Of a DNA stretch of 64,000 bases, positions 10,709 through 64,000 are shown one piece after another. The notes under the pieces were generated by a model that did no database searches, was not told the DNA's origin, and saw nothing but the letters and a program-made list of their open reading frames with translations. Position numbers and translations under genes: made by a program. This stretch comes from Clostridia bacterium (GTDB lineage Bacteria; Bacillota; Clostridia; Christensenellales; UBA1242). Location: the NCBI GenBank assembly GCA_017464845.1, contig JAFTYD010000019.1:53567-117566 (forward strand). The letters run 5' to 3'. Position 1 is the stretch's first letter, and the number at the start of each line of letters is the position of its first letter.

Positions 10709-10976
10709 ACTGGGCTAGATGGGATGTTAGCGGTATCCTGTAACCTGCAATCCGCTACAGCAGGATTGACGATTTGCCTCGGTATAAAAAAGTTGAATAT
10801 GAGTATGTAATTTTGGCGTTGAAGTCAAGGTCTTATGCAATCAACACCCTTGAACCATGTCAGATCCTGACGGAAGCAGCATTAAGAGGTCTTGTTGGTG
10901 TGCCATAAGGTAGCTTTGGTGGAGTTAAAATTATGTAAGGCAGTTGGTTTTTTTATAACAAAGCAAGTTGCCCAGT
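10709..10976 (+). ncRNA. ffs: signal recognition particle RNA, long Bacillus-type form with Alu domain
   Basis: Conserved domain IV core GUCAGAUCCUGACGGAAGCAGC. The 5' ACUGGGC pairs with the 3' GCCCAGU. About 268 nt, with its own promoter and terminator. Confidence 0.88.
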
Positions 10977-37349: not shown

Positions 37350-37425
37350 GGGTTGCTAGCTCAGTTGGTAGAGCATTCGACTCTTAATCGAAGGGTCCGG
37401 GGTTCGAGCCCCCGGCAACCCACCA
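37350..37425 (+). tRNA. tRNA-Lys (anticodon CUU)
   Basis: Full cloverleaf by hand: acceptor GGGTTGC/GCAACCC, D-arm GCTC/GAGC, anticodon stem TTCGA/TCGAA with loop CTCTTAA, T-arm CGGGG-TTCGAGC-CCCCG, and an encoded CCA. Confidence 0.93.
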
Positions 37426-46269: not shown

Positions 46270-46343
46270 AGGGGTGTAGTTCATCGGTAGAATAAGAGTC
46301 TCCAAAACTCCTGAGGTAGGTTCGACTCCTTCCACCCCTGCCA
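46270..46343 (+). tRNA. tRNA-Trp (anticodon CCA)
   Basis: Acceptor AGGGGTG/CACCCCT, anticodon loop CTCCAAA, T-loop TTCGACT, encoded CCA. There is one A-C mismatch at the top of the anticodon stem and one T-T mismatch in the T-stem. Confidence 0.82.
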
Positions 46344-58862: not shown

Positions 58863-60068
58863 TTATTCAATAATTGTAGAAACAACACCAGAACCAACAG
58901 TTCTTCCACCTTCACGGATAGCGAAACGGAGTCCTTGTTCAATAGCGATAGGTGTAATAAGACTAATAGTCATTTTTACGTTATCACCAGGCATTACCAT
59001 TTCTACGCCAGGTTCAAGATCAATTGTTCCTGTAACGTCAGTTGTTCTGAAATAGAATTGTGGTCTGTAACCATTGAAGAATGGAGTATGACGACCACCT
59101 TCTTCTTTCTTCAATACGTAAACTTCAGCTGTGAATTTTGTATGAGGATCGATTGAACCTGGTTTACAGATTACTTGACCTCTTTCAATTTCATTTCTTT
59201 GAATACCACGAAGAAGAAGACCTACGTTATCTCCAGCTCTACCTTCGTCAAGAAGTTTTCTAAACATTTCAACACCAGTAATAACTGTTGATTTTCTAGA
59301 ACCCATACCAACGATTTCAACTGTGTCGTTAACGTGAACGATACCTCTTTCTACTCTACCAGTTGCAACTGTACCACGACCAGTGATTGTGAATACGTCT
59401 TCAACAGGCATAAGGAAAGGTTTGTCTGTTACTCTTTGAGGTTCAGGAATGTAAGCATCAACAGCGTCCATTAATTCATGGATACAGTTACAAGCTTCAC
59501 TTGAAGCGTTTCCTTCTTGTGCAGCTTCTAATGCTTTTAATGCAGAACCTTTAATAATTGGAGTTGTATCTCCTGGGAAACCATATTCTGTAAGAAGGTC
59601 TCTAATTTCCATTTCAACAAGTTCAAGAAGTTCAGGATCGTCAACTTGATCTGTTTTGTTCATGAAAACTACGATATAAGGAACACCAACTTGTCTAGCA
59701 AGTAAGATATGTTCTCTTGTTTGAGGCATAGGACCATCAGTTGATGCAACAACCAAGATAGCTCCGTCCATTTGAGCAGCACCAGTGATCATGTTTTTAA
59801 CATAGTCAGCGTGTCCTGGGCAGTCAACGTGTGCATAGTGTCTATTGTTTGTTTGATATTCAACGTGAGAAGTGTTAATTGTAATTCCTCTAGCTTTTTC
59901 TTCTGGAGCCTTATCAATTTCATCATATCTCATTTGTTGAGCTTTTCCTTCTGCAGCAAGAGTCATTGTGATTGCAGCAGTAAGAGTTGTTTTACCGTGG
60001 TCAACATGTCCGATTGTACCAATGTTAACGTGAGGTAAAGATCTGTCAAATTTCTCTTTTTCAGCCAT
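58863..60068 (-). CDS. tuf: translation elongation factor Tu
   Basis: [22 protein letters not shown]; 401 aa. Confidence 0.99.
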
Positions 60069-60220: not shown

Positions 60221-62296
60221 TTAGTCTTTTTTTCTTTCGCCCATAATTTTTTCAGCGATACTCTTTGGAACTTCAGCATATTTTAAGAATTCCATAGAGA
60301 AGTTACCACGACCTTGTGTTTGTGAACGAAGATCAGTTGCATAACCGAACATTTCTCCAAGAGGAACTTCAGCATTAACAATTTGAACACCAGGTCTTGT
60401 TTCGTTACCTGTTAAGATACCTCTTTTTGAAGTAATACTTCCCATAACTGTTCCAAGATATTCATCTGGAAGTTCAACTTGAACTTTCATAATAGGTTCA
60501 AGTAAAACAGCGTCAGCTTTTGCACAACCATCTTTGAATGCCATAGATCCGGCAATCTTGAATGCCATTTCAGAAGAGTCAACATCGTGGAAAGAACCGT
60601 CAACAACTGTAACTCTAAAGTCAACAGTTTCGTAACCAGCTAAGATACCATTTTGTCTAGCTTCTTCAATACCATTATTGATAGGTTGAATAAATTCTTT
60701 TGGAATTGATCCACCAACTGTTTTATCAACAAATTCATATCCAGTTCCAGCTGGTAATGGTTCGATATCGATAATACAATGTCCGTATTGTCCTTTACCA
60801 CCTGATTGTCTAATGAATTTACCTTCTGCTCTAGCAGATCTTCTGATAGTTTCTTTGTAAGCAACTTGTGGTTTACCTACGTTAGCTTCAATCTTGAATT
60901 CACGAAGAAGTCTATCAACGATAATATCAAGGTGAAGTTCGCCCATACCAGCGATAATTGTTTGACCAGTTTCTTGATCAGTGTATGTTTTGAAAGTTGG
61001 GTCTTCTTCTGCAAGTTTAACAAGAGCGAGAACCATCTTTTCTTGCATAAGTTTTGTTTTAGTTTCAATAGCAACCTTAATAACTGGATCTGGGAATTCC
61101 ATACTTTCAAGAACGATTAAATTCTTTTCATCGCAAAGAGTTTCACCAGTAATTGTATCTTTAAGACCAACGATAGCAGCAATATCACCTGCACCAACAG
61201 ATTTAATTTCTTCTCTTTGGTTAGAGTGCATTCTGATTAAACGACCAACTCTTTCTTTTACACCTTTATTTGAGTTATAAACATAAGAACCAGCATCAAG
61301 TCTTCCAGAATATACTCTGAAGAATGCAAGACGACCAACGAATGGGTCTGTCATAATCTTAAATGCAAGTCCTGCAAATGGTTCATCTTCATCAGCTTTT
61401 CTAGTTTCAAGTTCGCCAGAATTTGGATTTGTACCTTCAATAGCATCAATATCAATTGGTGATGGAAGGTAATCAACCATTGCGTCAAGGAGTTTTTGAA
61501 CACCTTTGTTTTTATATGAAGAACCACATAAAATTGGTGTAACTTGTTTAGATATTGTAGCTTTTCTAATTGCTTTTTTGATTGTAGCAATATCGAATGT
61601 TTCGCCTTCAAAATATCTTTCCATTAATTCGTCGTCTGTTTCAACAACTTTTTCAATCAATTCATTATGCATTTCTTCAGCTTTTGCTTTGAATTCTTCT
61701 GGAATATCAATGATTTCAACGTTTTGGTTCAAATCATCATGATATAAAGTTGCTTTCATTTCAACTAAGTCAATAATTCCTCTGAAATCTTCAGCAGCAC
61801 CTATTGGCATTTGAATTGGCAATGGATTTGTTTGTAATCTTGTTTTAATAGCTTCAACACATTTGAAGAAGTCTGCAGCATCACGATCCATTTTGTTAAT
61901 GTAGATAGCAGCAGGAACTTTATATTTAGAAGCTTGTCTCCAAACTTTTTCAGTTTGAGGTTGAACACCACCACGAGCACAAAGAACTAAAACAGCTCCA
62001 TCTAAAACTTTTAAAGATCTTTCAACTTCAACAGTAAAGTCAACGTGTCCAGGTGTATCAATAATATTGATTTTATGATCTTTCCAGTAACAAGTTGTAC
62101 AAGCAGAAGTAATAGTTATACCTCTTTCTTGTTCTTGAACCATCCAGTCCATAGTAGCTTGTCCATCATGAACTTCACCGATTTTATGAGTTTCACCAGT
62201 GTAAAACAAAATTCTTTCAGTAGTAGTAGTTTTACCAGCATCAATGTGAGCCATGATACCGACATTTCTAACTGTACTTAAATCAGTTTTAGCCAT
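60221..62296 (-). CDS. fusA: translation elongation factor G
   Basis: [24 protein letters not shown]; 691 aa. Confidence 0.99.
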
Positions 62297-62403: not shown

Positions 62404-62877
62404 TTACCACTTGTAATGTGCGAAAGCTTTGTTAGCTTCTGCCATTCTGTGCATTTCATCTCTTTTTCTTATAGAAGCACCTGTGTTATTGTATGCATCC
62501 ATAATTTCTCCAGCAAGACGAGCATCCATATTTCTTTCGCCAGTTCTCTTTCTAGCATTGAAAACGATCCAACGAATAGCAAGTGTTTGTCTTCTTTCTG
62601 GTCTGATTTCCATAGGAACTTGGTAAGTAGCACCACCAACACGACGACCTTTGGTTTCAAGTACAGGTTTTACATTTTCAATAGCTGCATTGAAAACATC
62701 AATAGCGTCTGTTCCCATTTTTTCTTTAATAATGTCAAAAGCACCATAAACAATTCTTTGAGCAAGGCCTTTTTTACCACTAACCATTACTTGGTTAGTA
62801 AGTTTAGTAACAACTTTACTTCCATAAATTGGATCTGGAAGAACTTGTCTTTTGACAGCACTATTTCTTCTTGGCAT
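62404..62877 (-). CDS. rpsG: 30S ribosomal protein S7
   Basis: [20 protein letters not shown]. The start at 62877 follows GGAGGA. Confidence 0.98.
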
Positions 62878-62933: not shown

Positions 62934-63311
62934 TTATTTTTTATTAGCATTTTTTGCACCATATTTAGAACGAGATTGTTTTCTGTTTGCAACACCAGCT
63001 GTATCTAATGTACCACGAATGATGTGATAACGAACACCAGGTAAGTCTTTTACTCTACCGCCACGAACAAGTACAACACTGTGTTCTTGTAAGTTGTGTC
63101 CAATACCAGGGATGTAGCAAGTTCCTTCTTGACCATTTGAAAGTTTAACTCTGGCAATTTTACGAAGAGCTGAGTTAGGTTTCTTAGGTGTAGCAGTTCT
63201 TACAGAAAGACATACTCCTCTTTTTTGAGGACATTCTTCAAGAAGTGGAGCCTTTTTCTTCTTTTCAAAAGTTTTACGGCCATTTCTTACTAATTGGTTT
63301 ATAGTAGGCAT
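62934..63311 (-). CDS. rpsL: 30S ribosomal protein S12
   Basis: [13 protein letters not shown] and [10 protein letters not shown]. Confidence 0.99.
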
Positions 63312-63354
63312 TTCATACTCCTTTTAATTCAGTAGATAACTGAAAGTTTTGTCT

Positions 63355-63382
63355 AAAAAAAATAGACGGGTGTTTCCCGTCT
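63355..63382 (-). terminator. intrinsic terminator inside the rpsL leader, ~40 nt upstream of the rpsL start
   Basis: On the reverse strand: AGACGGG-AAACA-CCCGUCU, then A and U8. Confidence 0.75.
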
Positions 63383-63578
63383 AAACATAAACTTATTGAA
63401 AAAGGCATAGTACTACCTTTTTAGTAAAACATGAACAACACAATTACAAATTCAAGATTTGTAACTCTAACAACAAAATTTGTTAGATCAGTGAAAAAAG
63501 CCACTTGTTGTTTGTTTATGCTTTGCCAGCTTGAGATCAAGCTATCCAATAAGCATTGTTTCCGACAACGAAACATAC
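63383..63578 (-). ncRNA. structured 5' leader / candidate cis-regulatory RNA of the str operon
   Basis: Four local hairpins enclosed by an interrupted ~20-bp long-range helix (63547-63575 with 63371-63398) that competes with the terminator. Details are in the findings. Confidence 0.5.
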
Positions 63579-63584
63579 TTTGAT

Positions 63585-63613
63585 AGTATAAAGTAAAAAC
63601 AAAGCCTTGTCAA
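63585..63613 (-). promoter_or_regulatory. promoter of the str operon leader
   Basis: On the reverse strand: TTGACA (63608-63613), 17-nt spacer, TATACT (63585-63590). Confidence 0.7.
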
Positions 63614-63698
63614 GAGTTTTTGTAAAGTTTTATAAAATATTTTATTGATATTTATTTATTAAAATATATAACAATAAAAGAAGGGTCCACCCCTTTTT

Positions 63699-64000
63699 TT
63701 AATTTATCATATCTTCAAATTCTTGTTCTGAAATAATTTTGATATTTAAACTTCTTGCTTTATCAAGTTTACTTCCTGCATTTTCCCCTGCCAAAACATA
63801 ATCAATATTTTTTGAAACTGAACTTGAGGTTTCTCCTCCAAGACTTTCTATTATTTCACTTGCTTGATTTCTTGTGTATTTTGTAAGGGTCCCGGTAAGA
63901 ACAAATTTTTTACCAGAAAACTTATCTCCCTTTTTATTTGTATTAGGATAAATAATTTCAACACCTAATTCAAATAAGTTTTCAATCTCTTTGTTATTAT
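63699..64000 (-). CDS. ligA: NAD-dependent DNA ligase, C-terminal BRCT end only (gene continues beyond the right edge)
   Basis: The hand translation ends ...GKKFVLTGTLTKYTRNQASEIIESLGGETSSSVSKNIDYVLAGENAGSKLDKARSLNIKIISEQEFEDMIN*, the canonical LigA BRCT domain. Confidence 0.85.
   Translation of the reverse strand, partial: NNKEIENLFELGVEIIYPNTNKKGDKFSGKKFVLTGTLTKYTRNQASEIIESLGGETSSSVSKNIDYVLAGENAGSKLDKARSLNIKIISEQEFEDMIN

Follow-up and report, generated by a model that had tools for sequence, protein, structure and literature searches.

A structurally heterogeneous class of transcription attenuators has been described upstream of rpsL in several phyla (Naville & Gautheret 2010, PMC2965389). 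The leaders of this class share neither sequence nor structure and have no demonstrated partner, S7 having been suggested for some of them (PMC2965389). In Escherichia coli, S7 represses the str operon, and its operator lies in the spacer between rpsL and rpsG (PMC10931766). A 2020 survey of new ribosomal protein (r-protein) leaders lists none for S12 or S7. Attenuators of rpsL were predicted across phyla more than 10 years ago, and their general principle is already known; the literature searched reports no demonstrated effector and no well-defined sensor structure for them. Here, a leader preceding the str operon rpsL-rpsG-fusA-tuf is analysed in a stretch of 64,000 nucleotides (nt) from a Clostridia bacterium (contig JAFTYD010000019.1 of assembly GCA_017464845.1, positions 53,567 to 117,566). 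The whole stretch, with a G+C content of 27%, is referred to as the window; leader and operon lie on its minus strand, and all coordinates are those of the window.

Comparative sequence analysis identifies the leader as one of a conserved family of RNAs that always accompany rpsL. The family is uncatalogued and is a new structural variant of the ‘multiform rpsL-leader’ attenuators, a type of control already described for rpsL. Its probable role is that of a cis-acting transcription attenuator of the str operon. At the level of sequence and predicted structure it contains a promoter, a conserved folded domain, a terminator and a long-range helix that excludes the terminator and is energetically balanced against it. 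Like the known rpsL attenuators, the RNA immediately precedes rpsL in the str operon and has a terminator between promoter and start codon and an anti-terminator overlapping it; as with r-protein leaders, a conserved structured RNA occurs exclusively upstream of an r-protein operon.

With the leaders of Naville & Gautheret the family has in common the site upstream of rpsL-rpsG-fusA-tuf and the terminator/anti-terminator logic, and S7 is suspected in both cases. It differs from them in its much larger sensor, a conserved domain of approximately 155 nt that contains a four-way junction and is rich in covarying pairs, in its occurrence in uncultured low-GC gut Clostridia, in the inclusion of terminator-less forms and in the lack of an Rfam match. 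S7 autoregulation in E. coli (Saito & Nomura 1994, reviewed in PMC10931766) concerns the same operon, and r-protein feedback on S12, S7 and EF-G would be the presumed purpose. However, the E. coli site is intercistronic, between rpsL and rpsG, and its target is coupled translation, whereas the window leader lies upstream of rpsL and is predicted to act on transcription termination; the two sites have no sequence similarity.

The Firmicute L10, L20 and S15 leaders and the S-box-type riboswitches, as generally known, resemble the present leader in combining a structured sensor with mutually exclusive terminator and anti-terminator helices that are balanced within a few kcal/mol. In contrast to these systems, the predicted anti-terminator is here a long-range helix around the whole junction domain, the element to be displaced is the 5'-terminal hairpin (P1), and the fold of the sensor matches no catalogued family. 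What the family adds to the earlier predictions is a large sensor with strong covariation support, switch strands of both states mapped to the nucleotide, and natural variants with and without a terminator.

Distribution and catalogue searches

Some 45 homologous leaders, all from uncultured low-GC gut Clostridia, were obtained from three sources. A scan for S12 with one genome per species gave two species with an alignable leader (L001 and L002); a walk outwards through S12 proteins of 87-98% identity gave loci L081-L104 and L196-L203; and metagenome contigs searched for the block of highest conservation (GCATAAACAAACNNCANGTG) yielded 91 stretches, 29 of which were genuine, each with rpsL directly downstream, the remainder being chance matches. 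After removal of duplicates, 42 distinct leaders were analysed. A covariance model (R1; 22 representatives, 141 positions) built independently of Rfam scores 81-123 bits on 40 leaders and finds a single copy in the window (63425-63581, minus strand, 114 bits).

All matches positive by this model sit directly upstream of rpsL. Different lineages have different genes on the upstream side of the leader (ligA, a sigma-70 factor, a Glug-domain protein or hypothetical genes), so the leader travels with rpsL. No R1 match was found upstream of rpsL in 78 other species of the S12-scan set, among them Christensenellales, Lachnospiraceae and Oscillospiraceae, so that the family is confined to a clade of uncultured low-GC gut Clostridia. 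A search for nearer relatives of the window's variant by way of three S12 proteins of 96-98% identity gave only the common subtype. As a side observation, S12 of the leader-bearing clade is approximately 13 residues shorter than in many Lachnospiraceae, Ruminococcaceae and Acutalibacteraceae (loci L016-L055), and the tblastn matches in the lineages with the longer protein span approximately 399 nt over the same 120 query residues, which suggests that S12 differs by an insertion or deletion according to whether a lineage has the leader.

Searches of Rfam 15 agree with the preliminary description of this locus, made from the sequence alone, in which the leader had not been recognised as any known riboswitch, T-box or r-protein leader. 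A permissive cmscan of the leader region (E <= 10) found no rpsL leader, r-protein leader or riboswitch family, the only alignment being one below threshold to SQ1002; a permissive scan of 10 homologous loci (E <= 1) found no rpsL leader family and nothing consistent; and a scan of the whole window at gathering thresholds left the leader unmatched. The Pseudomonas and Rickettsia rpsL leader families of Rfam are reportedly derived from the work of Naville and Gautheret.

SQ1002 (RF03533), to which the window aligned weakly over the full length, was rejected by taking into account its score (24.5 bits, E = 0.011, against a gathering threshold of 128) and the fact that none of the 10 other members matches it. 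Both Clostridioides difficile SQ1002 and the leader are AT-rich, measure approximately 210-240 nt and combine a sigma-A promoter with several hairpins and a terminator, but SQ1002 adjoins feoA2 whereas this leader adjoins rpsL, and the alignment is treated as a chance match between AT-rich hairpin-plus-terminator RNAs. No T-box was matched in the window region at E <= 10, and ARAGORN found no tRNA-like cloverleaf at 63300-63700, leaving the P3-P6 junction unrecognised.

The folded domain

The whole leader of the window has a predicted folding energy of −74.3 kcal/mol (z = −4.65 against dinucleotide shuffles), a value reached by none of 200 shuffles. The helices (table 1) are the same when RNAalifold is applied to a plain MAFFT alignment and when the model-based alignment is used. 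Cells of the alignment assigned to pairs are canonical in 98.7% of cases, compared with 34-50% for controls with slid partners; 13 of the 29 pairs contain double changes, and the observed covariation score was reached by 0 of 500 shuffles. A domain of approximately 155 nt emerges as the part universal to the family.

Among 36 distinct sequences, five of the six pairs of hairpin P1 show changes on both sides. The strand able to pair instead with the 5' half of the terminator consists of the 5' arm and loop of this hairpin. P2 takes different forms among members (GUCU/AGGC, GCU/AGC), and a closing P2 helix with a variable insert, from 4 to more than 100 nt long, is present in all 42 leaders. Five loci (L109, L118, L157, L167 and L168) have in common a P2 insert of approximately 60-130 nt (UUGAUUGUGCG...CAGCAUGCG...GGAAAGCAU) that folds into two or three extra hairpins; of these, L157 and L168 have P4 enlarged by an insert of approximately 190 nt as well, and P6 contains large inserts in L183 and L202.

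P3 follows the consensus AAACA+AAC(A/G)(A/G)CA with UG(U/C)UGUU-C(A/G)-UGUUU and is mostly invariant, one of its pairs showing covariation. Although their sequences differ, P5 and P6 stand side by side as hairpins in 42/42 leaders, and P3, P4, P5 and P6 therefore form a four-way junction. The only unpaired nucleotides of the junction are GA between P4 and P5 (63489-63488 in the window) and (U/C)G between P6 and P3. An additional helix, P0, is tentatively proposed, in which the first transcribed nucleotides would pair with those just after P3 and close a P0-P1-P2-P3 junction; the candidate pairs are, depending on the member, GUA/UAC, UUG/CAA, ACG/CGU and GC/GC.

The four hairpins listed in the preliminary description are all present, namely the P2 extension, P5, P6 and the hairpin at 63399-63422, the last of which is unique to the window's leader and missing from the tails of all other homologues. 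The AACAACA/UGUUGUU helix that had been raised there as a possibility proved to be real. Its extent had been understated, as the helix runs to P3 in full, and it brackets three hairpins rather than two, the small P4 hairpin having been overlooked.

Promoter, terminator and competing long-range helix

The near-consensus promoter noticed earlier matches the sigma-70 consensus at 11 of 12 positions and recurs in the family: in 39/39 homologues with enough upstream DNA, hexamers of the type TTGACA-17-TATAAT end 7-12 nt before P1. The preservation of the promoter at a fixed distance lends comparative support to a transcription start near 63578 in the window. An untranslated leader of approximately 265 nt lies between promoter and rpsL. 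The earlier statement that no convincing promoter intervenes was borne out by a consensus scan of the minus strand from 63585 to 63311, which detected no further promoter-like site in the window, and on this consensus scanning the window rpsL would depend on read-through.

The canonical terminator with its run of eight U residues, previously placed shortly before the rpsL start, was found by a terminator scan. Its stem has 8 base pairs (bp), five of them G-C, the hairpin energy is −11.9 kcal/mol, and the terminator ends approximately 45 nt before the rpsL ATG. A clear terminator at the equivalent place, consisting of a hairpin of −8 to −16 kcal/mol followed by a U-tract, is present in 28 of the 42 distinct leaders. 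Each subgroup has a stem sequence of its own, unrelated to the others (GCACGAC/GUCGUGC; GACGCG/CGCGUC; GACACGG/CCGUGUC; GGCACGAAA/UUUCGUGCC; ACGCGACGCAUAC...; and AGACGGG/CCCGUCU in the window).

The 5' half of P1 and the strand next to it can pair with the 5' arm and loop of the terminator and the few nucleotides before them, so that the leader is predicted to adopt either of two folds that exclude each other. To represent the state at the decision point of RNA polymerase, each transcript was folded up to the terminator loop. For the window, RNAfold gives 22 long-range pairs at −61.0 kcal/mol (UGUUUC/GAAACA, GUC/GAC, AAACA/UGUUU and CUUAUUG/CAAUAAG), in which the GAC and GAAACA segments of the 3' strand lie within the 5' arm and loop of the terminator. 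This is exactly the pairing of 63547-63575 with 63371-63398 that the preliminary description had put forward as an anti-terminator. In 27 of the 28 terminator-bearing leaders, the minimum free energy structure of the truncated transcript holds such a long-range helix of 13-25 pairs (approx. 20 bp), formed by the first 33 nt or so (P1 5' arm and loop, P2 5' strand) with the stretch just before the terminator, the 5' arm of the terminator and its loop. The junction domain is enclosed in the helix and remains intact.

Several controls agree with this assignment. The window duplex is worth −17.2 kcal/mol, as opposed to −8.7 ± 2.3 kcal/mol for shuffled partners, only 1 of 200 being as good. Across members, cognate duplexes have a mean energy of −20.3 kcal/mol, against −8 to −15 kcal/mol for shuffled ones (mean z = −3.3). 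With a slightly longer 5' segment, the window leader reaches −21.9 kcal/mol with its own terminator and −14.6 kcal/mol or weaker with approximately 25 other natural terminators of the window. When 23 other terminator contexts of the window were grafted onto the leader, 0-15 long-range pairs formed (median, 2) compared with the real 22.

Complementarity to the 5' segment is retained in homologous leaders of many species despite their differing terminators. Five terminator types are each complementary to the near-constant 5' segment in registers of their own (GCACGACAAC, GACGCGAAA, GACACGGAAAC, ACGCGACGCAUAC and, in the window, AGACGGGAAACA). In one subgroup, CGACAAC in the 5' arm exactly matches the P1 loop GUUGUCG and is kept even where the terminator stem needs only part of it; in another, CGAAA or GGAAAC matches the P1 arm GUUUCG; and in L085, GCAUAC matches the extreme 5' end, GUAUGC. 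Variants further upstream are also paired, 5' CAUAUGCUU going with AAGCAUAU and CA(A/G)UGCUU with AAGCAUUU, in place of which the window has CUUAUUG/CAAUAAG.

The calculated energies fit a switch whose two states are 5-8 kcal/mol apart. As long as the 3' arm of the terminator has not been transcribed, the anti-terminator is more stable than the P1/P2 state by a mean of 7.2 kcal/mol (7.9 in the window). With the full terminator present, the advantage lies instead with the combination of terminator and P1, by a mean of 5.8 kcal/mol (5.0 in the window). A competing anti-terminator arrangement in the rpsL leader is thus supported by the folding predictions and their conservation among homologues.

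Proposed mechanism and candidate effectors

In the course of transcription, P1 and P2 would form first. Were they held shut, the terminator would form and transcription would stop before rpsL. With the 5' strand free, it would instead invade the nascent terminator and establish the long-range helix around the junction domain, and the operon would be read through. An effector acting on the folded domain would then keep P1 (and P2) closed, favouring the terminator and lowering expression of the operon. The simplest agent would be a protein encoded in the operon and present in excess over ribosomal RNA (rRNA), giving negative feedback; that an r-protein in excess over rRNA acts on its own leader is the usual logic of r-protein leaders.

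An operon-specific effector is favoured because the leader is linked exclusively to rpsL, and this exclusive linkage, together with the single copy per locus, fits r-protein feedback. By analogy with other leaders, an operon-encoded r-protein (S7 or S12) is most likely to be the effector. S7 is estimated to be the leading candidate, at well below an even chance; some other protein or RNA factor is rated below it, and S12 and a small molecule or ion, which are rated alike, stand lower again. The identity of the effector is the main question and the reason why the family could come to matter more. Meanwhile, the family offers a concrete construct with which S7, S12 and other factors can be compared as possible regulators of the str operon in Gram-positive bacteria and, as an uncatalogued RNA family, is useful for the annotation of metagenome-assembled genomes (MAGs) of gut Clostridia.

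As a separate observation, the rpsL-rpsG spacer is approximately 206-247 nt long in L085 and L086 and approximately 160-170 nt in L081, L196 and L199, compared with 56 nt in the window. The heptamer GUCGGAA (63563-63557, the end of the P1 loop and the start of the 3' arm) is shared with the 3' major domain of E. coli 16S rRNA (approximately 1334-1340), near the region bound by S7; the match is at chance level (E ~21) and serves as a lead only.

A number of points weigh against attenuation by an r-protein. The start site, termination and read-through in these uncultured organisms are all deduced from sequence, and the polarity of the switch, from effector to termination, is an assumption. Termination control is not universal in the family, since 11 of the 42 leaders are without a U-tract terminator and another 3 have weak ones only. 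Comparison of the leader with E. coli 16S rRNA and the rpsL-rpsG S7 site, by an nhmmer family profile and blastn-short, gave only chance words of 6-9 nt, the comparison being one of sequence and with the rRNA of E. coli rather than that of the clade. Non-cognate 5' and 3' segments from different members cross-pair almost as well as cognate ones (−18.6 versus −20.3 kcal/mol). The segments are homologous across members, which limits strict column-by-column covariation for the long-range helix and makes the cognate versus non-cognate test of co-evolution uninformative; the subgroups pair in differing registers, and MAFFT misaligns the terminators. Finally, 11 loci (L106, L115, L117, L119, L123, L125, L134, L142, L143, L183 and L084) have a second conserved module between the leader terminator and the Shine-Dalgarno (SD) sequence of rpsL, which is missing from the window; it consists of UGACAAAUCC-N-AUUCAUGAUUUAAAACUGAAAAU with a small hairpin, AAAUC.../...GAUUU, inside. 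Read as DNA, this module resembles a weak promoter (ATGACA-17-AAAACT), so that rpsL could in this subgroup be partly independent of read-through.

Alternative explanations

A new class of riboswitch could also look like this, with a large domain of several junctions, nucleotides of junction and loop that do not vary, and a terminator and anti-terminator in balance downstream. The double junction would be an aptamer for a metabolite, ion or alarmone (a nucleotide, (p)ppGpp or a cation) reporting growth or translational status, and the terminator/anti-terminator its expression platform; both parts can be recognised in the leader. The peripheral helices accept inserts of 100-200 nt while the core is fixed, and mimicry of rRNA is not detectable, at least relative to E. 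coli, both of which suit such a sensor. Small-molecule riboswitches, however, usually control transporter or biosynthetic genes too, whereas all copies of this RNA were found upstream of rpsL, one per locus. No association with genes of ligand metabolism or transport at several loci was found, the leader being linked to rpsL only and present as a single copy within the 64-kb window. The distribution is phylogenetically narrow and the gene context suggests no ligand. A riboswitch is on balance unlikely, and slightly less likely still is the more specific proposal of an undescribed class whose aptamer would be the double junction of 155 nt, through which a small molecule or ion would directly gate the transcription of S12, S7, EF-G and EF-Tu. 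If true, it would place a metabolite-controlled switch, instead of r-protein feedback, on core genes of the translation machinery.

The consensus promoter and strong terminator would also yield an abundant, discrete RNA, highly structured and conserved, which could be the product of an independent gene of approximately 220 nt upstream of rpsL with a function in trans or a housekeeping role, rpsL being transcribed by leaky read-through; terminated riboswitch leaders that act in trans are known from other systems. This is distinctly improbable, as in the 11 terminator-less members the domain is simply the 5' untranslated region (UTR) of rpsL, the linkage to rpsL is absolute while the upstream gene changes, and the 5' arm of the terminator is constrained to pair with the 5' segment, a pairing for which a plain small RNA terminator has no need. 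Nor was a second rpsL promoter detected in the window by the consensus scan. No better is the chance that the leader is a static structured 5' UTR concerned with mRNA stability, processing or translation, with the terminator as a constitutive partial attenuator and the anti-terminator as an incidental feature. The terminator-less members, which retain the domain, the GACAAA motif and the hairpin before the SD sequence, would suit a role independent of termination, but the complementarity of the anti-terminator has been kept in at least five terminator types of unrelated sequence, clearly exceeds all three sets of controls (shuffled partners, natural terminators and grafts) and belongs to two energetically balanced states. 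Ribosome-mediated attenuation through a leader peptide is hardly credible. An open reading frame (ORF) of 51 codons (63576-63421, AUG in GUAUGUUUC) does begin 2 nt from the inferred transcript start, but it is without an SD sequence, the terminator-less members have neither AUG nor GUG at that place, and the substitutions keep base pairing, not codons, intact. Conserved blocks are separated by distances that vary by non-multiples of three, which puts the blocks in different frames; coding is excluded because the frames are inconsistent and some members have no start codon, and the leader peptide was rejected.

Terminator-less leaders and elements preceding rpsL

Terminator-less leaders (e.g. 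L089, L091, L093, L101 and L169) keep the whole domain, followed by a short G+C hairpin without a U-tract, then by (U/C)AGACAAAU, with the SD sequence approximately 10 nt further on. If the leader is a transcription attenuator elsewhere in the family, the same sensor presumably operates in these members at another level, for example that of translation or mRNA stability. Predicted folds of the terminator-less members did not reveal consistent pairing, and hence sequestration, of the SD sequence.

A single-stranded motif, GACA(A/G)A, is found in every member inspected, between the terminator or hairpin and the SD sequence, even across large inserts. In the predicted folds of terminator-less members, both this motif and the P1 loop are mostly unpaired. 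A contact between loop and motif near the ribosome-binding site is put forward as a possible hypothesis, and the mode of action of the terminator-less leaders may involve it; it is kept at that level because both partners are near-invariant and two loop variants, UAUGUCG and GAUGUCG, are uncompensated in the motif. The hairpin that precedes the SD sequence in the window has counterparts of differing sequence at the same place in L001, L002, L141, L167 and L118, where they abut the conserved UUAAAAGG(A/G)G SD region; its possible function is to stabilise the read-through mRNA or to act in its translation.

Features of the window

The features of the leader and the genes around it are collected in table 1. 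The S12, S7 and EF-Tu proteins encoded in the window are identical to proteins so named in a ‘Clostridia bacterium’ MAG, whose S7 and S12 have the accessions MBQ8844989.1 and MBQ8844990.1.

Table 1. Predicted elements of the leader and neighbouring genes, in order of transcription (window coordinates).
Feature	Position	Strand	Description	Basis
ligA	end ~63700	minus	followed by its own terminator-like hairpin (63695-63681), upstream of the leader promoter	
Promoter, sigma-70-type	63613-63608; 63590-63585	minus	TTGACA, 17-nt spacer, TATACT	consensus scan
Transcription start	~63578	minus	inferred	sequence
P1 hairpin	63557-63575	minus	UGUUUC/GAAACA, 6 bp; loop GUUGUCG (63569-63563), UGUCG invariant	RNAalifold
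P2	63518-63556	minus	AUGCUU (63556-63551) with AAGCAU (63523-63518)	
P2 extension hairpin	63528-63543	minus	AGCUUGA-UCUC-AAGCU; variable insert in P2	
Four-way junction domain P3-P6	63427-63517	minus		RNAalifold, covariance-model alignment
P3	63506-63517 with 63427-63440	minus	AAACA+AACAACA with UGUUGUU-CA-UGUUU; 12 bp, 2-nt bulge	
P4	63490-63505	minus	consensus (A/G)GUG/C(A/G)C(U/C); closing pair GC in 21, AU in 15	
P5	63466-63487	minus	6/6 pairs covary	
P6	63443-63465	minus	hairpin in all sequences	
Extra hairpin	63399-63422	minus	AAAAAGG-UAGUACUAU-CCUUUUU	minimum free energy folds
Anti-terminator, 3' strand	63371-63398	minus	CAAUAAG (63398-63392), UGUUU (63387-63383), GAC, GAAACA; partner 63547-63575	
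Intrinsic terminator	63363-63383; U8 63362-63355	minus	UAGACGGG-AAACA-CCCGUCUA	terminator scan
GACAAA motif	63348-63353	minus	single-stranded, between terminator and SD; complementary to UUGUC of the P1 loop	
Pre-SD hairpin	63328-63344	minus	UUCAGU-UAUCU-ACUGAA, then UUAAAAGGAG; SD ~63324-63318	
rpsL (S12)	62934-63311	minus	ATG at 63311; first gene of the putatively controlled operon	ORF list
rpsG (S7)	62404-62877	minus	after rpsL	ORF list
fusA	60221-62296	minus	after rpsG	ORF list
tuf	58863-60068	minus	after fusA	ORF list

Elsewhere in the window, the bacterial large signal recognition particle RNA was identified at 10710-10975 on the plus strand (Rfam RF01854, 158.7 bits), and the Rfam scan at gathering thresholds located tRNA genes at 37350-37422 and 46270-46340, both on the plus strand.

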